A stretch of DNA of 24,512 bases from a virus (lineage: Duplodnaviria > Caudoviricetes). A program made the position numbers and the translations under genes. Shown piece after piece: positions 101-15,908 of the stretch. The stretch covers positions 1 through 24,512 of IMG/VR virus record IMGVR_UViG_3300032608_000576. One strand, given 5' to 3'. The notes beneath the pieces were generated by a model. The model was not told where the DNA came from. It made no database searches and saw only the letters and a program-made list of their open reading frames with translations. Each line of letters starts with the position of its first letter. Positions within the stretch are counted from its first letter, which is position 1.

Positions 101-291
101 ACTGGGCAATGGTGACGCGGGTGGGGCTGTGGACGTTGGCTGTTGAGGCGGGGCTGTTGGGACTTTGCATGTGGCTGGCTGTGCTGCTCACTGGCCACCG
201 GTGTGCCGCGCTCGTGATGATAGCGGTCATGTTGGTGGCGGTGGCCATTGTAGGCTTGGTGGCTGGCGCTGCTGTGGGCTGGGGGGGATGA
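97..291 (+). CDS. small hypothetical membrane protein (about 2 TM helices)
   Basis: ORF 64..291; ATG at 97 preferred because of the ATGA overlap with the upstream stop; two hydrophobic stretches. Confidence 0.55.
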   Translation: MNWAMVTRVGLWTLAVEAGLLGLCMWLAVLLTGHRCAALVMIAVMLVAVAIVGLVAGAAVGWGG

Positions 292-2423: not shown

Positions 2424-2518
2424 CCGCCCTAGCTTATTTGGGCGGGATATGCGCTGCGTGGCTGGCCGCCTGTGGGCTGGCCTGGTGGCTGGTGGGTGAT
2501 GAGGAGTGGGAACCGTAG
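2420..2518 (+). CDS. 32-aa single-TM peptide
   Basis: GTG 2420 overlaps upstream TGA; MTALAYLGGICAAWLAACGLAWWLVGDEEWEP; below the ORF-track length cut-off. Confidence 0.45.
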   Translation: MTALAYLGGICAAWLAACGLAWWLVGDEEWEP

Positions 2519-2529
2519 AGAGGGATCCG

Positions 2530-2685
2530 ATGGACATTCTTTGTGCGCTTTTGAGTGGGGCCGTTGTGCTGTTGTGGTTGGGGGTGTTCCTCGCGTGCTT
2601 GTTTGTGGTACCGATAGTCGCTGTTGGTTACGCCGTTTACCAAGACGGGAAGGTAGACGACGACGAGTTTTGGATGGGCTGGTGA
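2530..2685 (+). CDS. 51-aa membrane peptide
   Basis: GAGGG upstream; MDILCALLSGAVVLLWLGVFLACLFVVPIVAVGYAVYQDGKVDDDEFWMGW; its TGA overlaps GTG 2682. Confidence 0.55.
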   Translation: MDILCALLSGAVVLLWLGVFLACLFVVPIVAVGYAVYQDGKVDDDEFWMGW

Positions 2686-3296
2686 ACCTCTGGACAGGCA
2701 CTCGCGTGGCCCTGATCTGCGACTATTATGACCCGGTCTACGTCGGCGGGGCGGAGTGGAGCGTGCGCCACCTGGCCGAGTGGCTGGCGGTCAAGGACAC
2801 TGGCGTCGTGGTCGTTACCCCGAGCTTTGGCGAGACGGGGGACGATCGCGAGCCCGTCCTGATCCGGCGCTACCCCGTGCCGTTCAAGTCCGCGCCCGTC
2901 CCTTACTGGCAGCTGGCCAACCCCTGGTGGTACCTGTACTCGGCGCGGCACATCACGCGTATCTGCCAGCGCGAGAACGTGAGCGTGCTGCATTGCCAGG
3001 GCAAGCACAGCCTGGTCGGCACGTGGCTGGCAGCGCGGTGGATGCTGCGGCCCTGCGTGGCCACGTTGCGCGACTATCAGGCGCTGTGCCGGTACGGGGT
3101 GACGTTTGACAAGGCCGCGTGCCAGTGGCCCAGGACCCCGGCGGGGCTGTACCATCGGGCCGATGCGGCCCTCAAGCGATACGTGCTGAGGGACTATGAC
3201 GAGGTGGTGGTGTTGTCCGAGGCGATGCGGCGGATCTATGCGCAGTATGGGGTGGAGGCAAGGGTGATTCACAATACGGTGGAGGCGGGGACGTGA
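2682..3296 (+). CDS. GT-B (GT4-like) glycosyltransferase, N-terminal acceptor domain only
   Basis: RVALICDYYDPVYVGGAEWSVRHLAEWL, VVVVTP, VLHCQ, VATLRDY, VVVLSEAMR; ends at ARVIHNTV, matching the usual VIxNGVD interdomain linker; start GTG 2682 rather than 2472. Confidence 0.85.
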   Translation: MNLWTGTRVALICDYYDPVYVGGAEWSVRHLAEWLAVKDTGVVVVTPSFGETGDDREPVLIRRYPVPFKSAPVPYWQLANPWWYLYSARHITRICQRENVSVLHCQGKHSLVGTWLAARWMLRPCVATLRDYQALCRYGVTFDKAACQWPRTPAGLYHRADAALKRYVLRDYDEVVVLSEAMRRIYAQYGVEARVIHNTVEAGT

Positions 3297-3499
3297 GCGA
3301 GAAGGTGTACGTGCTGAAGGGGGTAATGAATATGGAAGTGACTATTTTGGCAGTGGTACTTTTTCTTATGTTTCTCTTTTCGGTGCCTGTGCTGGACCGG
3401 TTTTTCGGGAACCTGGAGCGGGAGACGTATCTGAGGTATCGAGAAATGCTGCAGGAAGCGGACGATGCCTGGCGCGCGGCACACCCCGACGCGCCGTGA
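3293..3499 (+). CDS. 68-aa single-TM protein between the two GT halves
   Basis: GTGA overlaps at both ends; TM segment VTILAVVLFLMFLFSVPVL; visibly more T-rich than flanks. Confidence 0.6.
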   Translation: MSEKVYVLKGVMNMEVTILAVVLFLMFLFSVPVLDRFFGNLERETYLRYREMLQEADDAWRAAHPDAP

Positions 3500-4074
3500 G
3501 CACCATCCTCTACGTCGGCAAGCTGAGCTATGGCAAGGGCGTGGACCTGCTGGTGGATGCGCTGCCGGAGATTATCGAGCAGATAGGGGAGGTGGAGGCG
3601 GTGTTCGTGGGCGAGGGGCCGCTCCTGTGGCAGTTGCGAGAACAGATCTGTGGGTGGGGGCTAGACTACTATGCGGCCAAGGTGGGCTTTCTGGGCCAAG
3701 TCCCCCACGCCGAGGTCTGTGCTCTCTATCGCGACGCCGACGTCACCGTCATCCCCTCGCGCTGGCAGGAGCCGTTCGGGCGCGTGGCCCTGGAGGCATT
3801 GTGGTACGACTGCCCCATCGTGGTCACGAACCGGGGCGGCCTGCCCGAGATCGCGGCCTATGGCCCGAGCGAGATCGTGGAGCCGACGGGAGAGGAGTAC
3901 TCTCCTCTGGACATCGCCGCAGGCGTGGTGCGCATGCTGAGGCGGGAGAGGGGGGAAGAGAAGTACTCTTCTCCAGAGTACTCGTCTCGCCACGTGGACC
4001 GGGACTTGCTGCGCTGGGTGTTCGGGGACGTAGTGCGGGACAAGCACATGGAGATGTATGAGGGGTTGACGTGA
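3496..4074 (+). CDS. GT-B (GT4-like) glycosyltransferase, C-terminal nucleotide-sugar-binding domain (Glycos_transf_1-like)
   Basis: ILYVGKLSYGKGVDLLVDAL, FVGEGP, ADVTVIPSRWQEPFGRVALEA (E-x7-E), PIVVTNRGGLPEI. Confidence 0.9.
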   Translation: MSTILYVGKLSYGKGVDLLVDALPEIIEQIGEVEAVFVGEGPLLWQLREQICGWGLDYYAAKVGFLGQVPHAEVCALYRDADVTVIPSRWQEPFGRVALEALWYDCPIVVTNRGGLPEIAAYGPSEIVEPTGEEYSPLDIAAGVVRMLRRERGEEKYSSPEYSSRHVDRDLLRWVFGDVVRDKHMEMYEGLT

Positions 4075-4613: not shown

Positions 4614-4692
4614 GCGTCCGGAGATCGGCAACGCCGTCTCGGGGTGCTCGTGATAGGGCGGGTGGGGGAGCACGTTGTCGCTAGGAGGAGTA

Positions 4693-4869
4693 TTGACGCT
4701 GAGAGCACAAGGCAGAGGGCGAGGACGACGCAGTGGGCCGTATGCTGCTGGGCCTGGTGGGCAGTGCGTGTGCCCAAGTTGTGGCCACAAGGTGGCGCAC
4801 GGGGCAGGTACGCCGTGCACGAGCAGGACGTGCCCCAAGTGTGGCGCGCAGATGATGCGGGTGCTTTGA
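4693..4869 (+). CDS. 58-aa Cys-rich zinc-ribbon-like protein
   Basis: AGGAGG just upstream of TTG 4693; GRGRGR...AAGPGGQCVCPSCGHKVAH...PC...CPKCGAQM. Confidence 0.75.
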   Translation: MTLRAQGRGRGRRSGPYAAGPGGQCVCPSCGHKVAHGAGTPCTSRTCPKCGAQMMRVL

Positions 4870-5093: not shown

Positions 5094-5443
5094 CCCTACG
5101 CGAGGCTGCGGACCGCCATGCGCTGCTGTTCGCCGGCATCCTGATCATCGCGGGCGTTGCCTGGCAGGCCACCGCCGTGCTTCAGGAGGAGCAATTGCCG
5201 CCGGGGCTACCTGAGGTGGTGCTGCAGGGGCGCGCCATGGCGGAGCTGGCCGTGCTGCGACGCAACGTGGCAGAGCAGGAGTTGTACCTGGCCGCGATGC
5301 GCAAGGGCGAGGCGCTGACGCGCGAGGAGTATGTAGACGCGCTGGGCCAGTGGTATGCGCTGAATGAGATGGCGACGGGTCGGGTGCTGGACGGGGCCGA
5401 CCCGACGGATCCGGAGACGAGACTGTGGACGGTGGGGGAGTGA
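5090..5443 (+). CDS. hypothetical protein with N-terminal TM/signal anchor
   Basis: ALLFAGILIIAGVAWQATAVL followed by a helical domain; GTGA-coupled. Confidence 0.65.
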   Translation: MTLREAADRHALLFAGILIIAGVAWQATAVLQEEQLPPGLPEVVLQGRAMAELAVLRRNVAEQELYLAAMRKGEALTREEYVDALGQWYALNEMATGRVLDGADPTDPETRLWTVGE

Positions 5444-5450
5444 GCGGAGC

Positions 5451-5888
5451 ATGGCAGAGACGATCCAGGAAAGTCCGGCGAAATCCATATCTGACCAGTT
5501 GCAGGACGCGCTGGCCCAACTTTCCACAGATCAGATCAGATACATCGTTGTGCGGCAGGGGTATACCTCAGACAAGGATGCGGCTGATGCGCTAGGGATG
5601 AAGCCGGATACGGTGTACCACTGGCCAGACGTTGTGCGCGAGGCCTGTCGCTTGATGGCCGGGGATGGCATCGTTGTGGCGCGGCATGTGCTGCGCAAGA
5701 ACCTAGCCAAGGCCGCGCTGATCAAGGCGGCTGGCCTGGACAGCGACAGCGAGCGCATTCGCCAGGACGTGGCCGCGGAGATACTAGACAGGGAGCTGGG
5801 CAAGCCGACGCAGCGCCAGGAGCTAGGCGGCCCTGACGGCTCGCCGCTTGTGGTCAACATTGTACGGGCAGAAAAGCCGCAGGAATGA
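5451..5888 (+). CDS. terS: terminase small subunit
   Basis: HTH-like SDKDAADALGMKPDTVYHW and C-terminal EILDRELGKPTQRQELGGPDGSPL; directly upstream of terL; GGAG before ATG 5451. Confidence 0.75.
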   Translation: MAETIQESPAKSISDQLQDALAQLSTDQIRYIVVRQGYTSDKDAADALGMKPDTVYHWPDVVREACRLMAGDGIVVARHVLRKNLAKAALIKAAGLDSDSERIRQDVAAEILDRELGKPTQRQELGGPDGSPLVVNIVRAEKPQE

Positions 5889-5891
5889 GCC

Positions 5892-7985
5892 TTGGAGGTA
5901 ACGCGCCAACTCTACGGAGCCCAGCACGACTTTGTGGCCTGTACCGAGCGTTTTACGGCGTTCATCGGCGGCATTGGCTGCGTCGCCGCCGAGACTATCG
6001 TTGAGGGCGTCCCGATTGCCGAGCGAGACTCGGCGGGGCAAGTTACGACGCTGCACGGGCCAGCGATGGCGTCGAGGGCTTTTCGGAAGGGGCGAGCTGA
6101 TCTGTATCGTGTTCAAACACAATCGGGCGCGGCGGTTGTGGTAACTGAACAGCACCGCTTCCTAACGCCAGAAGGGTGGCGTCCGCTTGCGCGCCTGTCC
6201 GCTGGGTCTTTCGTAGCTGCTGATGGAAGCGGGCATGATCATTCTGTGAGCGGAACACCACGAGGTTGGTCGGAGCGTTGTGCGTCGCGTCCTCATCCAG
6301 GTGGTGGATTATCCATCCCTGTGGGAGCGGCTGGCCAAAGCAGATTGCGGCGACCTCATAACACTGGCGGCGATAGTAGTGCAAGGTCGTTCTCTGACTC
6401 TTTCCGCCCTTCCACTGGGCATTCTTGGGGCCAGTTGCGCGCGACTCAACTAGCCCGCGGCGACTTGTACCGTGAGAGCGTAGGCGTCGGCGGATTACCT
6501 CGGGTGACACGCCATAGGCCTGGCCGAGATCAATGGTGGACTCGCCCGTCAGATAGCGGTCTGCGATCTCATCCATCGGGAGTTGATGAACAGGTAGGCG
6601 GCCCTTGCCAACTCGGATTCCCTGCGAAATCAGAATCTTGGATACGGTTGACTGGAGCATCCCGAGTTGCTGAGCAACAAGGCGCTGGTTCCCGAGTTCC
6701 TGAAAGGTGTGCACAATCAGAGCATAATCATATTGGCGGGCCCGGCCCCGATGGTTCCCGGACTTGTTCATGGCCTTATTATAGCACATTTTGGGACAGA
6801 ATAACAACTATATCCTACTCACGGCACGGTGACTTCTACGATTTGTCAGTGCCGGATGGCAACCACTACCGAGCTCATGGCTTGTGGCACCACAACAGCG
6901 GCAAGACGTATGCGGGGGCCATCAAGCTGTTGGTCCAGTGTGGCGAGAATCCAGGCCTCTACGGTGTGATCTCGCCAACCTATCCCATGCTCCGGGACGC
7001 AACGCTGAGGTCTGCCCGGGAGGTGCTGGGCCGGGGCCTTACGGGATTCAACAAGGCCGAGATGGTGGCCACGGTCCAGGGGGGCAGCGAGATCCTGTTT
7101 CGCAGCGCAGACAACCCCGAGCGACTGCGCGGGCCAAACCTGAGCGGCGTTTGGATCGACGAGGCCGCGCTATGCCATCGCCAGACGTGGGACATCCTCA
7201 TAGGCCGACTGCGCGCCGGGGGCAAGGCTGGGCCGTGCTGGATCACGACAACACCCAAGGGGCGCAATTGGCTATGGGAACGCCGCGATCAGATGCGCAT
7301 ATTCAAGGCCAGGACGCAGGACAACTGGTACCTGTCCCCCGAGTTCGTGGCCTCGCTAGAGAGGGCCTACAGCGGCGACTTTGCCCTCCAGGAGCTAGGC
7401 GGCGAGTTCGTGGCCTTCGAGGGCCTGATCTATGGCGAGTACGACCGGGACGTGCACACACAGCGCCGTAAGGCGGCAGAGTTCTCGCGCGTCGTGGTCG
7501 GGGTCGACGAGGGCTACACCAACCCAGCGGTGGCGCTGGTCATCGGGGTGGACGGTGACGGCAGGGCGCACGTGCTCGAAGAGTTCTACAAGCGCCAAGT
7601 GCGCCAAGAGACGTTCGTCACCGAGTGCGTGGGTATCCATGAGCGCTACACCGTGGAGCGGTTCTACGTGGACCCCTCGGCGGCGGGCCTGATCGGAGCG
7701 ATGGCCCACGCGGGTCTGCCCGTTATGCCGGCGAACAACGCGGTGACGGACGGCATACAAGCCGTCAAGGCGCGGCTGGCAGTGCAGGGCGATGGGCTGC
7801 CACGGCTGACGCTGGACCCAGCCTGCGCGAACACGGCGAGTGAGTTCGAGAGCTACGTCTGGGCCAAGACGCGCGATGGCCAGGCCCTCGACAAGCCGGT
7901 GAAGGACAATGATCACTCCATGGACGCCATCAGATATGTTTCAAGCGCCCTGGCACAAAAGAGACGAGGCTGGCGATCCTGGTGA
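5892..7985 (+). CDS. terL: terminase large subunit, intein-containing (391 aa after splicing)
   Basis: Walker A GGIG|SGKT restored after intein removal; LRGPNLSGVWIDEA Walker B; TTTPKG motif; nuclease domain GVDEG, YVDPS, NDHSMDAIRY. Confidence 0.95.
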   Translation: MEVTRQLYGAQHDFVACTERFTAFIGGIGCVAAETIVEGVPIAERDSAGQVTTLHGPAMASRAFRKGRADLYRVQTQSGAAVVVTEQHRFLTPEGWRPLARLSAGSFVAADGSGHDHSVSGTPRGWSERCASRPHPGGGLSIPVGAAGQSRLRRPHNTGGDSSARSFSDSFRPSTGHSWGQLRATQLARGDLYRESVGVGGLPRVTRHRPGRDQWWTRPSDSGLRSHPSGVDEQVGGPCQLGFPAKSESWIRLTGASRVAEQQGAGSRVPERCAQSEHNHIGGPGPDGSRTCSWPYYSTFWDRITTISYSRHGDFYDLSVPDGNHYRAHGLWHHNSGKTYAGAIKLLVQCGENPGLYGVISPTYPMLRDATLRSAREVLGRGLTGFNKAEMVATVQGGSEILFRSADNPERLRGPNLSGVWIDEAALCHRQTWDILIGRLRAGGKAGPCWITTTPKGRNWLWERRDQMRIFKARTQDNWYLSPEFVASLERAYSGDFALQELGGEFVAFEGLIYGEYDRDVHTQRRKAAEFSRVVVGVDEGYTNPAVALVIGVDGDGRAHVLEEFYKRQVRQETFVTECVGIHERYTVERFYVDPSAAGLIGAMAHAGLPVMPANNAVTDGIQAVKARLAVQGDGLPRLTLDPACANTASEFESYVWAKTRDGQALDKPVKDNDHSMDAIRYVSSALAQKRRGWRSW
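6043..6771 (-). CDS. HTH-containing HNH homing endonuclease encoded antisense inside the intein (242 aa)
   Basis: Two HTH-like segments (QRLVAQQLGMLQSTVSKIL; STIDLGQAYGVSPEVIRRRL), GPKNAQWKGG motif, HNH core IIHHLDEDATHNAPTNLVVF...HARFH; ATG 6771 lies just downstream of a consensus -10. Confidence 0.85.
   Translation of the reverse strand: MNKSGNHRGRARQYDYALIVHTFQELGNQRLVAQQLGMLQSTVSKILISQGIRVGKGRLPVHQLPMDEIADRYLTGESTIDLGQAYGVSPEVIRRRLRSHGTSRRGLVESRATGPKNAQWKGGKSQRTTLHYYRRQCYEVAAICFGQPLPQGWIIHHLDEDATHNAPTNLVVFRSQNDHARFHQQLRKTQRTGAQADATLLALGSGAVQLPQPPRPIVFEHDTDQLAPSEKPSTPSLARAAS
6778..6807 (-). promoter_or_regulatory. sigma70-type promoter for the antisense HNH gene (probably leaderless)
   Basis: Minus strand reads TTGTTA (6807-6802), 18-nt spacer ending in TGC, TATAAT (6783-6778), AAGGCC, ATG (6771). 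Confidence 0.75.
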
Positions 7986-10330
7986 ACATCATCCAACGCC
8001 TGGGGCGGGCATACAAGGCCGCTAGCGCGGCCATGCGCTGGCCGGGGGCGGGGTCCTTTGCTTCGTGGATCATGCCGCGGAGCGACATCGACTATCAGAC
8101 CGAGGTGGGCACGGGGCGCAAGTCGTCCGTGGTCATGGCCTGCGTGGGCTGGGTGATGCGGACGTTCCCCGAGGCGCCGGTGCAGGTACTCAGGCGCAAC
8201 GCTGAGGGGGCCATGGAGGCCGTGGAGCAGCACAAGCTGCTGGCCCTCCTGGAGAGGCCGAACCCGTACTATCCTGGCGAGTTGCTGTGGCAGGCCACGA
8301 TGGGCGACCTGGAGACCATGGGCAACGCCTACTGGCGCAAGATTCGCAACGGCTACGGCGCGCCCGTGCAGTTGTGGTGGATGCCCCAGGCCACGACGGA
8401 GCCCCGTTGGTCACAGCATGGCACCGACTATATCTCGCACTATGACTATACCGTAGACGGCCAAACGGAGCACCTGGCGCCCGAGGACGTGGTGCACTTT
8501 CGATGGGGCCTGGACCCCGAGAACGTGCGCAAGGGCCTGGCCCCGCTGCAGTCGCTGTGGCGCGAGGTGTTTACCGATGACGAGGCGGCGGCGTTCAGCG
8601 CCGCGCTGTTGAAAAACATGGGCGTGCCGGGGGTGATCCTGAGCCCGAGCGGCGCGGACCTGGGCACACCCGGGCCAAACCCTGACGAGCAGGACGCGAT
8701 CAAGGAGAACTTTAGGCAAAAGTTCACCGGGGACAAGCGCGGCGAGCCGCTGGTCATGGAACAGCCGATGAATATGCAGATCGTGTCGCTGTCGCCGCAG
8801 CAGATGGACCTGGGCCAGCTGCGCGAGATCCCTGAGGAGCGCGTCTGTGCCGTCATGGGCATCCCGGCGGCGGTTGTGGGGCTGGGCACGGGCATGCAGC
8901 AGACCAAGGTCGGGGCCACGCTGCGCGAGCTGCGCGAGCTGGCCTACGAGTCACACATCATTCCGATGCAGCGCCTTACGGGGGGGCAGGTCGAGTCGCA
9001 GCTGCTGGTAGACTTTGAGGACCCGGCCAAGGCGGCGATCGGCTTTGACGACAGCAAGGTACGCGTACTGCAGGAGGACGAAGACGCCAAGTGGACGCGC
9101 ACGGACACAGCGGTGCGCGGCGGCTGGATGACCATTCTGCGTGCCAAGGAAATCGTGGGCGAGACGCCCGAGGACGGCGACAACATCTACCTGCGGCCGA
9201 TCAACGTGGTGGAGGTGGGACCTGACGCCCCCGAGCCGGAGCTTACAGAGCCGACCAGCGACCAGGGCGAGATCGCCCCCGGGGACTTACGCGGCGAGGA
9301 AGAGGACGAAGAGCCAGACGATGACGGCGAGGACGAAGGCGAAAAAGCAGCGAAGTCGCCCGGAAGGGGGGCGGCGGGCGCCGAGACGGCGCGCCCTTTT
9401 GAGGGCGCCGCGACCAAGACGCTGTGCTCGGATGAGCGCATCTGGGCCGGCAAGGCCCGGTACCCAGACGAGACCAAGGCCAGCAACGCGGATCGCATCT
9501 ACCTGCAGCGTACCGAGCGCGAGGCGCGGAGTCTGGCCAAGCGATTCCAGATGGACGTCAGCCGGGCGCTGGTCAAGCTGGCTGACGCCGTAGAGATCAC
9601 GGTGCGCGAGGCGGCAAAGGAGGCCGTCCCGAAGCCTGACCCAGACGAGGCCTGGGCTACCAGCATGACCCTGGACGGCGGCGAGGTGGTCACGGTCGAG
9701 GTGCCCGAGGAGCTACTGGAGCAAGCGGGGCTGCGCACGCTGTACGAGGCCAACTATGAGCAGATCATCAACACGACGCTGGGCACGGTAGCGCAACGGC
9801 TAGCCATGCCGGTCAACGTGATGCTGCCCGACCCCGTGGCCCGGGACATGATCCGGCAGGGCGGCCAGAGGATCACGCGCATCGGGGATCAGACGCGGCG
9901 GGCCATCACCGGGGCACTGGCCGACGGGCGCATCGCCGGCGACGGAGCCAAGGCCCTAGAGAGACGCATCCGGTCCTATGTCGAAGGTCGGCACATGTAT
10001 CCCGGCATCTTTGCGCGCGCCGAGGCAGCCGGGCGAGACGGCGACAGGGCAGCGCGGATGTACCGCGGGGAGACCATTGCCAGGACAGAGACCAAGAGGG
10101 CGCAGAACCTGAGCGCGATCAAGAGCTTTCAGGGGAACGCGCAGTGTTCGGGGATCAGGGTGTGGGACGGCGAGGGTTGCGGCTGGACGTTCCACGATGA
10201 CCCGCTGGTGGCCAACGGGCGGCTGGTGAGCTTCCAGGAGGCCGCGGACCAGCCATTGTCGCACCCGCGCTGCGTGCGGTCGATGGGGCCGGTGGTCAAG
10301 GGCGAGGGGCCGGTGGCGCCCGCCCCATGA
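7982..10330 (+). CDS. HK97-family portal protein fused to a Mu gpF/SPP1 gp7-like head morphogenesis domain
   Basis: Portal motifs LLERPNPY, GNAYW, EDVVHFR, GLAPL, GVPGVIL in about aa 1-410; acidic linker; C-terminal RGETIARTET...HPRCVRS. Confidence 0.9.
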   Translation: MNIIQRLGRAYKAASAAMRWPGAGSFASWIMPRSDIDYQTEVGTGRKSSVVMACVGWVMRTFPEAPVQVLRRNAEGAMEAVEQHKLLALLERPNPYYPGELLWQATMGDLETMGNAYWRKIRNGYGAPVQLWWMPQATTEPRWSQHGTDYISHYDYTVDGQTEHLAPEDVVHFRWGLDPENVRKGLAPLQSLWREVFTDDEAAAFSAALLKNMGVPGVILSPSGADLGTPGPNPDEQDAIKENFRQKFTGDKRGEPLVMEQPMNMQIVSLSPQQMDLGQLREIPEERVCAVMGIPAAVVGLGTGMQQTKVGATLRELRELAYESHIIPMQRLTGGQVESQLLVDFEDPAKAAIGFDDSKVRVLQEDEDAKWTRTDTAVRGGWMTILRAKEIVGETPEDGDNIYLRPINVVEVGPDAPEPELTEPTSDQGEIAPGDLRGEEEDEEPDDDGEDEGEKAAKSPGRGAAGAETARPFEGAATKTLCSDERIWAGKARYPDETKASNADRIYLQRTEREARSLAKRFQMDVSRALVKLADAVEITVREAAKEAVPKPDPDEAWATSMTLDGGEVVTVEVPEELLEQAGLRTLYEANYEQIINTTLGTVAQRLAMPVNVMLPDPVARDMIRQGGQRITRIGDQTRRAITGALADGRIAGDGAKALERRIRSYVEGRHMYPGIFARAEAAGRDGDRAARMYRGETIARTETKRAQNLSAIKSFQGNAQCSGIRVWDGEGCGWTFHDDPLVANGRLVSFQEAADQPLSHPRCVRSMGPVVKGEGPVAPAP

Positions 10331-14108: not shown

Positions 14109-15908
14109 ATGACGAAGCGAACAAGAACGCTCCTGCTGACCATGGCTGTCATCGCGGCGGTGTTTGCCGCCGTGAGCTGTGCGCCGAGCTATATGGGCCC
14201 GGTGTATCGCACGTCTGGCAAGCTCACCGTGGACTCTGGCGGCGAGCTAGAGGTGAAGAGCGGTGGCATCGTTGACCTGCAGAGCGGGGCGTTCATCACG
14301 AACGCATCCGGGCTGTTGCTCGACGGTGGCTCCGACGAGGTACAGCTGACGGTCCAGGGGTACGAGGCGCAGACAAACGCCATCATGGTGGTCGAGAACC
14401 AGCTGGGCACAGACATCCTGACCGTGCACAGCACGACCATCACGACGGCCGGGACCCTGGTGTGTTCGGGCGCAATTGACGCTAACAGCGGCGTAGATGT
14501 GCTCACGGACCTGACCGTGGCGACCACGGCGTTCGTCGCCAGCGCCTCGGGCTACGTGACCTCGACTGTGCAGGTGCAGTCGGCGGACCTGAAAAGCACG
14601 GACGATGTGCTGGTCGGCGACGATCTAAACGTCGGCAGCAGCGCGGTCGTGGCCAGCGCCAGCGGGTACCTGACGACCACGGCGCAAGTGCAGTCGGCGG
14701 ATCTCAAGTCGACTGACGACGTGATCGTGGGCGATGAGCTGACGGTCAATACCACAGCGGTTGTGGCCAGTGCCTCGGGCTACGTGACGAGCACGGCCAG
14801 CCTGTACTCGGCTGCGCTGGAATCCACCGCCGGCACGACTGTGGGCGATGCCCTCGTGGTAACCACGGGCGGCATTGACCTACAGGACGGGGACTTGACC
14901 CTCGCCGAGGGTGAGTCCATCGGGAACAGCGTCGCCACCCAGATCGACATCACGGCCACGACCGTGTCCCTGTCGGGGGCTCTGGACGTGACCGGTGGCG
15001 ATGTCATCCTTCAGAACGACAGCTTGATCGACAACGGCGTGGCCGGAACGATCGGGTTGTCAGCAACGAACGGCGTCGTGGTCACGGACACCCTGACAAC
15101 CATCGGCGACATCACAGCTGGCACGGGGATCACGGTTACCGCTGGCGGAGTCCTGATCTCGGCGGGCGGTGCGACAGTAACGGCCGGCGGGGTGGACATC
15201 CAGGACGGGGCCCTAACCCTGTCGGAAGATGAATCCATCGGCCAGCTAGGAGATGGAATCGTCGCGATCACGGCCACTACGACCTCGCTGTCAGGGAGCC
15301 TGGATGTGACCGGCGGGGACGTCATCCTCGAAAACGACGCCTGGATAGACAACGGCGTGGCCGGAACGATAGGGCTCTCTACCACTCTAGGCAACGTGGT
15401 AATTTCGGACTCGCTGACCACGGTGGGCGACATCACGGCCGGGACAGGGATCACGGTTTCAACCGGTGGTCTCCTGGTATCGGCAGGCGGCGCCGTCGTC
15501 ACGACGGGCGGCATCGACCTACAGGATGGGGACTTGACCCTAGCCGAGGGTGAGTCTATCGGAAACAGTGCCGACGGGACTATCGCCATGACCGCGACCA
15601 ACGTTCTTCTGTCCAACTTCTTGCAGCTGACGGCCGTTGAGCAAATCTTGACGTTCAACGACGAGCCCATAACCCCGACCGCTACGCTGATGGAGATCAC
15701 GAACGGCGGGAATATCTGGACGGACAGCGTTGTGGCTGGCACAGATGGGCAGCTTCTGATCATCCGTAACACGGCGAACAACAACCTGGTTCTCACGGAC
15801 ACAGCGACGCTCATGCTTTCGGGCAACCTCACGTTGGCTCAGTACGACACCGTTGTGCTGCTCAGTGATGGGACCAACTGGGAACAGCTCGCGACAAGCA
15901 ATAACTAG
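14109..15908 (+). CDS. putative head fibre/decoration protein with lipoprotein-type signal peptide and internal repeats
   Basis: AGGAGG SD; KRTR + hydrophobic helix + AVS-Cys24; Thr/Gly/Val/Asp-rich beta repeats; C-terminal GTDGQLLIIRN...LLSDGTNW fibre-like domain; first gene after the MCP. Confidence 0.6.
   Translation: MTKRTRTLLLTMAVIAAVFAAVSCAPSYMGPVYRTSGKLTVDSGGELEVKSGGIVDLQSGAFITNASGLLLDGGSDEVQLTVQGYEAQTNAIMVVENQLGTDILTVHSTTITTAGTLVCSGAIDANSGVDVLTDLTVATTAFVASASGYVTSTVQVQSADLKSTDDVLVGDDLNVGSSAVVASASGYLTTTAQVQSADLKSTDDVIVGDELTVNTTAVVASASGYVTSTASLYSAALESTAGTTVGDALVVTTGGIDLQDGDLTLAEGESIGNSVATQIDITATTVSLSGALDVTGGDVILQNDSLIDNGVAGTIGLSATNGVVVTDTLTTIGDITAGTGITVTAGGVLISAGGATVTAGGVDIQDGALTLSEDESIGQLGDGIVAITATTTSLSGSLDVTGGDVILENDAWIDNGVAGTIGLSTTLGNVVISDSLTTVGDITAGTGITVSTGGLLVSAGGAVVTTGGIDLQDGDLTLAEGESIGNSADGTIAMTATNVLLSNFLQLTAVEQILTFNDEPITPTATLMEITNGGNIWTDSVVAGTDGQLLIIRNTANNNLVLTDTATLMLSGNLTLAQYDTVVLLSDGTNWEQLATSNN
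14535..14860 (+). repeat. three tandem 114-bp (38-aa) repeats
   Basis: VASASGY(V/L)T units start at 14535, 14649 and 14763. Confidence 0.85.
14862..15570 (+). repeat. two full units and one partial unit of a 106-107-aa repeat
   Basis: T(T/A)GG(I/V)D(L/I)QDG units at 14862, 15180 and 15501 (318 and 321 bp apart). Confidence 0.85.

Follow-up and report, generated by a model that had tools for sequence, protein, structure and literature searches.

We analysed a 24,512-base stretch of DNA (the window; 64% GC) from virus record IMGVR_UViG_3300032608_000576, whose own completeness estimate is 61%. In the gene for its terminase large subunit (TerL), the ATP-binding loop is interrupted by an intein that is predicted to splice itself out and that likely homes by means of a separate, conserved HNH endonuclease gene encoded on the opposite strand of the intein DNA; we put the probability of this reading at about 85%. 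A first-pass annotation of the sequence had proposed such an element, with splicing and nuclease functions on opposite strands and the middle of the sense frame just kept open, and the proposal is borne out by the nuclease profile match, the division of selection between the strands, a filler without a fold and the intact layout of the homologues. The parts of the element are listed below (aa, amino acids; nt, nucleotides; HTH, helix-turn-helix; pLDDT, predicted local distance difference test score; dN/dS and pN/pS, ratios of nonsynonymous to synonymous rates and proportions).

5979-6896, plus strand: class-1 intein of 306 aa, in frame with TerL (Pfam Intein_splicing; Hint fold)
5979..6224, plus strand: N-terminal splicing region with block A (C1) and block B (T56-x-x-H59 at 6144-6155); pLDDT >90 at residues 1-80; C1, T56 and H59 invariant
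6225..6788, plus strand: stop-free, unstructured filler in the TerL frame, the back of the HNH gene; pLDDT mostly <50; pN/pS 1.6-3.6
6789..6896, plus strand: C-terminal splicing region with block F (D288, H296) and block G (H305-N306); pN/pS 0.26 in the intein frame
6771-6043, minus strand: antisense HTH-HTH-HNH_3 endonuclease gene, 242 aa, ATG at 6771, stop at 6045-6043; HNH_3 and PHROGs matches; dN/dS 0.12-0.42
6457..6732, minus strand: two tandem HTH units (residues ~14-53 and 59-105); model helices with pLDDT ~90; HTH matches up to Z 6.5; pN/pS 0.40 and 0.32
6223..6306, minus strand: HNH nuclease core (H156-H157...N165...N169...H179...H183); invariant residues; pN/pS 0.22
6133..6222, both frames: doubly constrained zone of 90 nt, HNH residues 184-213 over intein residues 53-82 (block B); pS 0.19 (HNH) and 0.22 (intein)
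6807-6778, minus strand: sigma70-type promoter-like site, TTGTTA, 18 nt, TG-C-TATAAT; 10/12 match plus TG

The TerL intein consists of a splicing domain and an unstructured filler

TerL is a single 697-aa open reading frame (ORF; 5892-7985, plus strand), stop-free throughout, in which the intein takes up residues 30-335 with the boundaries GGIG/CVAAET...HHN/SGKT. It starts with Cys, ends with His-Asn, is followed by Ser and is inserted in the Walker A loop. Pfam Intein_splicing matched it with an E value of 1.2e-7, a match that lies under the curated cut-off. As had been claimed in the first pass, splicing blocks A, B, F and G are intact: C1 (block A), T56-E-Q-H59 (block B), D288 and H296 (block F), H305-N306 (block G) and the +1 Ser are all in place, and among 27 aligned relatives C1, T56, H59, H304 and N306 are invariant while D288, H296 and H305 are nearly so. 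In an AlphaFold model built with these relatives, pLDDT exceeds 90 at residues 1-80 and 271-306. The top Foldseek match of the model was the Ssp DnaB mini-intein (E 1.2e-6), DnaB and RecA mini-inteins lead the list, and those displayed of the 16 PDB matches at E up to 0.001 are all inteins.

Between residues 80 and 271 the same model drops mostly below 50, one short helix excepted, so that the structure prediction leaves the filler foldless. The middle 180 aa (6230-6770) contain G29, S25, R22 and P15, together 51%, and the description of this region as S/R/G/P-rich, motif-free and stop-free therefore holds. Intein_splicing is the sole Pfam family in the intein frame. A canonical full intein carries LAGLIDADG or HNH in frame; here no endonuclease family was found in the sense frame and the middle is unstructured. 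Third-position GC is 0.70-0.90 in the exteins versus 0.33-0.63 within the intein.

An HNH endonuclease gene lies antisense to the intein

The minus-strand ORF of 242 aa, for which two HTH segments and an HNH core had been noted from the letters, is recognised by profile searches. It matched HNH_3 with E 7e-5 and 22.8 bits, just below the cut-off, and with 25.6 bits, above the cut-off, in a second scan; the match to the PHROGs HNH endonuclease had an E value of 1.8e-10. The predicted structure (mean pLDDT 84.8) places two HTH units N-terminal to the nuclease core. We found 37 relatives of the protein at 38-62% identity; all 38 family proteins, the window's included, match HNH_3 and have H157, E160, N165, N169, H179 and H183 without exception. 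The sequence of 242 aa contains no CxxC, and a single-sequence PDB search with it returned nothing useful. The phase of the two frames is also as first described, codon position 3 of the HNH gene coinciding with codon position 2 of the intein.

The antisense layout is shared by the family

In a search with the HNH alignment, 37 loci were examined (the 8 best of 75 viral loci, 27 of 27 metagenome loci and 2 of 2 genome loci); the set includes this record, and 32 of its loci are distinct. In all 37, the nuclease is antisense to the intein in the same phase, the sense frame is stop-free across the match and intein blocks are present, two loci ending at a contig edge before block G. An intact HNH frame is present in 35 of them, L080 having a mid-gene stop and L103 a late one, and disruption of the nuclease in homologues is thus not the pattern.

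A second search with the splicing motifs yielded 80 loci, 67 of them distinct, and 52 could be parsed into 11 mini-inteins and 41 large inteins. Every one of these 41 has, in that same phase, an HNH-motif ORF of 130 aa or more on its opposite strand, and HNH_3 is listed for 40 of these ORFs. No endonuclease family was found in the 41 sense frames, 39 of which match only Intein_splicing and two nothing. The 41 include near-copies as well as this record and were confirmed against the window's intein, so that the count describes the lineage and not inteins at large. The 15 unparsed rows were left out; six also show an antisense HNH ORF and the others are short or partial. The family size is a lower bound. 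The corresponding antisense frame contains stops in 47 of 54 weaker HNH loci; the seven stop-free ones (L009, L011, L013, L021, L023, L026 and L029) read as more divergent TerL inteins with the HNH in the same antisense phase.

At least three nuclease subfamilies cluster on a quick splicing-domain tree. The HNH tree contrasting intein-borne with free proteins, which bears on one or several origins of the intein-borne HNH, has 88 columns and weak support, and its 'free' label wrongly includes the seven divergent TerL inteins. When the intein and HNH proteins were compared with 50,697 GenBank phage records, no match was obtained at E 1e-5, and two other family members gave just weak splicing-domain matches. 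Some loci have peculiarities of their own. L023 carries three intein-like inserts within one TerL, and L097:352-3844 (minus strand) encodes a TerL with a Walker A intein and a second intein-like insert near the C-terminus. In L101, TAG (locus 101-103, minus strand) stands in place of the Ser or Cys codon that relatives have at extein position +1, and an intact-looking TerL follows; this may reflect a pseudogene, a sequencing error or recoding.

Selection changes hands between two overlapping frames

For the middle of the intein, the first-pass annotation had predicted that the minus frame would be under purifying selection and that the plus frame would merely avoid stops, and both the substitution ratios and the stop counts agree with it. 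For 27 loci compared over the HNH core, nucleotide identities at the first, second and third positions of HNH codons are 0.61, 0.66 and 0.43, and amino-acid identity is 49% in the HNH frame versus 30% in the intein frame. For the 22 closest of 351 pairs, dN/dS is 0.12-0.42 in the HNH frame (one value not computable) versus 0.98-2.80 in the intein frame, the alignment having followed the HNH protein. Ratios greater than 1 in the intein frame are an echo of the constraint in the other frame, as has likewise been argued for the dnaX intein discussed below. The antisense gene is under selection also in members with 35% GC.

Regional values were obtained by pooling seven disjoint close pairs. Blocks F and G are constrained in the intein frame (pN/pS 0.26), 6732-6223 in the HNH frame (0.22-0.40), 6222-6133 in both (0.70 and 0.56, with pS near 0.2 in each), and the HNH tail again in the intein frame (0.51). 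In regions outside 6133..6222, coding-frame pS is 0.36-0.71. The suggestion that the HNH tail over block B is constrained from the sense side is thus right for the last ~29 HNH residues and incomplete for HNH residues 184-213, which are constrained in both frames. These antiparallel overlapping genes offer a natural case in which the hand-over of selection can be seen along 900 nt, with one forbidden codon pair.

That codon pair emerges from the stop counts. In 55 non-redundant ORFs out of 63, no stop was observed in the intein frame versus 329 expected from synonymous-codon shuffling, while the remaining two antisense frames of the same ORFs contain 695 and 429 stops. For the window's HNH gene, with the protein fixed and synonymous codons shuffled, 5.2 intein-frame stops are expected; the open intein frame is more than chance, because none of 300 shuffles was stop-free. 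With the frames in this phase, a stop on the opposite strand necessarily results wherever Phe precedes a codon that begins with A. This pair occurs in 0 of 207 cases in the intein-borne set (50 expected) and in 66 of 263 in a weak-match comparison set (75 expected). Because of the missing stops and this Phe rule, the filler must be read through as protein: it is translated, yet its sequence does not matter. This therefore practically excludes an intron or a split gene.

A promoter-like site precedes the nuclease gene

A feature missed in the first pass is the sigma70-type promoter-like site at 6807-6778, the best of its kind in 5800-7100, where three sites were found versus 0.4 expected. Its extended -10 element, TGCTATAAT, ends 6 nt ahead of the ATG at 6771, and an ATG 6 nt after the -10 hexamer has the spacing of a leaderless start. 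The site is written in intein codons Y267-T270 and block F. Two other possible starts of the HNH gene, ATG 6789 and TTG 6807, were rejected, as both fall inside this site. No terminator-like site was detected in 5800-7100.

Of 30 distinct loci, 20 have the site at an equal distance from block F with five or more of six positions matching (background 0.4% per position). TG is present in 14 of the 30, an in-frame ATG stands exactly at +6 in 11, and in five the leader is longer and contains a Shine-Dalgarno-like run. With the search interval widened slightly, the site was found in 34 of 53 large inteins versus 13.6 expected when intein codons were resampled; in mini-inteins it was found in 2 of 15 versus 1.5 expected. 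The promoter-like site therefore appears to be common among large inteins, though not universal, and separate expression of the nuclease gains support from its conservation. Several database gene calls start with MCYN, which is the promoter-like site read as protein. In L081 and L083, a perfect TTGACA -35 lies in block F codons, 18 nt ahead of the -10.

Distribution and hosts suggest a mobile element

Among the 120 TerLs nearest by C-extein (up to 76% identity), none has the intein; the Walker A motif is cleanly empty in 116 and variant in four. The absence of the intein from its nearest TerLs is as homing predicts. The best C-extein match in viral contigs, at 42%, is no close relative. Across 43 loci, the identity of the HNH proteins correlates more strongly with that of the splicing segments outside the overlap (Spearman 0.63) than with that of the extein (0.40), the locus pairs not being independent, and nine of 60 pairs with HNH identity of at least 50% have exteins at 25% or less. 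The element is hosted by several TerL types, an AAA_25 ATPase and DnaB: of 18 exteins scanned, nine match terminase families, AAA_25 and SNF2 are each matched by one (the latter with a mini-intein), one has a weak zinc-finger family match and six match nothing, and in P0043 and L091 the intein sits in DnaB.

On the quick splicing-domain tree, the mini-inteins require 8 changes for 11 rows, at least four of them forced by strong branches. Mini-inteins thus appear to have arisen several times, through loss of the nuclease. The patchy distribution and the host switches would fit homing with repeated nuclease loss, and the element may be active at present.

Alternative explanations

Several points weigh against a homing intein with a separate antisense nuclease. 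Fold searches with the whole HNH model matched the HTH units alone (Foldseek none at E up to 0.001; best VIA match Z 6.5), and the match of the HNH core to the solved HNH homing endonuclease 1u3e, which we take to be of the I-HmuI/I-BasI type, is weak (sequence E 0.034). No near-identical intein was found in a divergent host, the closest HNH relatives being ~55-65% identical. Of 53 large inteins, 19 have a weak promoter-like site or none, synonymous sites are near saturation in the distant pairs of the dN/dS comparison, and the host correlation is drawn from interdependent pairs. Finally, splicing, transcription, translation and cleavage are predictions from sequence and models.

The alternative that survives best is a domesticated passenger: the intein splices, but the antisense protein has given up homing and is retained, for instance, as an HTH regulator or as a nuclease against competitors. 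Purifying selection on the tandem HTH units would suit such a role, and evidence for a very recent transfer of this copy was not found. We nevertheless consider it improbable, since the nuclease residues are invariant, the element is missing from the nearest 120 TerLs, reduction to mini-inteins recurred (8 changes over 11 rows of the quick tree), the relative L080 carries a mid-gene stop and the same element occupies unrelated hosts.

The position of the HNH gene inside terL could also suggest a packaging cofactor that helps terminase cut DNA, like the terminase-adjacent HNH genes of cos phages (PMC3592412, in its accessible text). That cos-phage type has [CxxC]2 zinc sites (PMC3592412), whereas the protein here lacks CxxC and matches HNH_3. 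Relatives also lie inside DnaB and AAA_25 genes, and intein-free TerLs have no HNH at this site, which makes a role in packaging very unlikely.

We give even less credence to removal at the RNA level, by a group I intron with an antisense endonuclease, or to a split intein, in both of which the filler would never be translated. An intron would agree with the antisense orientation and the unconserved sense frame, but no Rfam match was found in the window at the gathering score, the splicing blocks are under purifying selection and the missing stops together with the Phe rule require that the frame be read through; a split intein is contradicted by the unbroken host gene, one ORF of 697 aa. That the minus-strand ORF is a shadow of GC-rich coding sequence, as might be suspected in a window of 64% GC with many spurious ORFs, is refuted by the invariant residues, the HNH_3 and HTH matches, HNH_3 in 38 of 38 proteins, the 37 relatives at 38-62% identity and the HNH-frame dN/dS, 35% GC members included.

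Proposed mechanism

For the homing intein we propose the following sequence of events. TerL would be translated through the whole insert, and the Hint domain would excise itself together with the ~185 aa of filler, restoring GGIG-SGKT. The extended -10 before block F probably directs host RNA polymerase to begin a leaderless antisense mRNA; with a start at its own site, the nuclease could therefore be made independently of terL. Judging from the family, the target would be the Walker A DNA of a co-infecting phage that lacks the intein: the paired HTH units would bind it, a nick or cut by the HNH core would follow, and repair off the intein-bearing copy would insert the whole element. Loss of the nuclease would yield mini-inteins. 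The filler is merely kept open, and the cost to the nuclease is that no A-starting codon may follow Phe; the 90-nt stretch needed by both genes locks them together.

A housekeeping-type promoter might, speculatively, let the nuclease appear during replication, before terL. More broadly, it is conceivable, though we hold it to be somewhat less than an even chance, that these elements form a large unrecognised intein lineage of uncultured phages in which homing is uncoupled from the host gene by an antisense promoter of its own beside block F, with a leaderless HNH message made during replication and not late with terL, and perhaps tuned by the tandem HTH units or by collision with terL transcription. 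If this were true, antisense coding would be a stable, regulated design rather than a rare intermediate, and many 'decayed' inteins would be active elements. A deep lineage that keeps both the antisense layout and the promoter-like site makes an advantage of separate expression testable, in terms of the timing of homing relative to a late structural gene.

Terminase setting and neighbouring genes

The gene order in the window, from Pfam and PHROGs, is terS-like, terL, portal, protease, capsid, major tail and tape-measure. The genes around the intein are:

5451..5888, plus strand: probable terminase small subunit (PHROG terminase small subunit, E 2.4e-4; weak HTH)
5892..5978, plus strand: TerL N-extein, Walker A, ending ...FIGGIG; intein-free relatives read GGIG/SGK[ST] here
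6897..7985, plus strand: TerL C-extein, first residue the +1 Ser (SGKT); Terminase_6N, Terminase_3, Terminase_3C; TIGR01547

Contigs from three of four sequencing runs (of one study, possibly the source of the window) cover 5400-8200 unbroken, with zero differences within the intein. As far as can be seen from these contigs, an assembly artefact at the intein is unlikely. In contigs of the four runs, the 5' part of the terS-like gene (5462-5762) has ~30 differences from the window and positions 5763 to 8160 have none; such clustering suggests that the DNA-binding end of terS was exchanged for another allele.

Upstream of terS, a 64-aa ORF (4675-4869) without PHROG match combines a GRGRGR run with a zinc-ribbon-like CVCPSCG...CPKCG. 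A family-4 glycosyltransferase lies in pieces (N-domain ORF 2472-3296, 68-aa ORF 3293-3499, C-domain ORF 3496-4074), the 68-aa ORF being without PHROG match, and two methyltransferase-like genes (700-2123) adjoin these pieces (2472-4074). Directly after the capsid gene, a 599-aa ORF (14109-15908) has neither a Pfam nor a PHROG match.

Comparison with known systems

The I-HmuI/I-BasI-type HNH homing endonucleases share with our protein the HNH_3 core and, over the aligned part, the same His...Asn spacing. They are encoded by group I introns, whereas the gene here is inside an intein, and their domain order differs from that found here, where the HTH units precede the nuclease core. What is said of published work in this section refers to the accessible parts of each text. 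Endonucleases of this type nick DNA (PMC3017599).

Out-of-frame intein endonucleases of phages, which the first-pass annotation mentioned, are indeed on record. In full inteins of actinobacteriophages, anti-sense LAGLIDADG and anti-sense VSR-like endonucleases have been reported (Gosselin, Arsenault, Gogarten; bioRxiv 10.1101/2025.01.02.630785), the first such antisense case being credited there to Gorbalenya 1998. As here, these are full inteins with an endonuclease ORF on the opposite strand, many of them in the terminase large subunit; they show signs of continued mobility, and invasion by a free-standing endonuclease is proposed as their origin. The accessible text lists HNH in frame only, while our element has an antisense HTH-HTH-HNH_3 and not a LAGLIDADG or VSR-like enzyme. 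In that survey, 63 of 784 inteins are non-canonical, of four kinds, versus 41 of 41 parsed large members antisense in the present lineage, and antisense endonucleases are modelled as rare steps between invasion and in-frame fusion. The words 'promoter' and 'leaderless' do not occur in its main text, whereas a promoter-like site is present here. The authors point out that such inteins can pass as decaying (10.1101/2025.01.02.630785). Inteins without a recognisable middle domain are usually scored in this way; many of those studied here hide an intact nuclease on the opposite strand, and surveys therefore undercount active elements.

The cyanobacterial dnaX intein (Phillips, DeSimone, Gogarten; bioRxiv 10.64898/2026.09.14.751524) resembles ours in its disordered host-frame filler, in the co-existence of mini-inteins and empty alleles, and in low dN/dS in the endonuclease frame with high dN/dS in the host frame. 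It differs in having a LAGLIDADG enzyme, described as a +2 ORF with Shine-Dalgarno motifs; HNH and a promoter are unmentioned in the accessible text. The orientation of this endonuclease is given as a +2 ORF in 10.64898/2026.09.14.751524 versus anti-sense in 10.1101/2025.01.02.630785. In the ShiLan domain of phage DNA methylases (PMC11855218), an HNH likewise occupies another frame of a stop-free insertion, but that insertion is without a splicing domain, in contrast to the Hint domain here, and its HNH is translated off the host transcript and not antisense. Fractured genes with split inteins (PMC2677866) also keep the endonuclease gene apart from the splicing domain and count terminase among their hosts; there, the host gene is in two and the three ORFs are on the same strand, in contrast to the unbroken host frame and the antisense nuclease of our element.

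Literature searches, with preprint supplements and most subscription papers outside their coverage, found no antisense HNH intein. The layout, with antisense LAGLIDADG and VSR-like precedents, is not new in kind; what it adds to the literature covered is a nuclease of HNH type, a lineage of this size and depth, a conserved promoter-like site linked to the nuclease, and an overlap with block B that is constrained in both frames.

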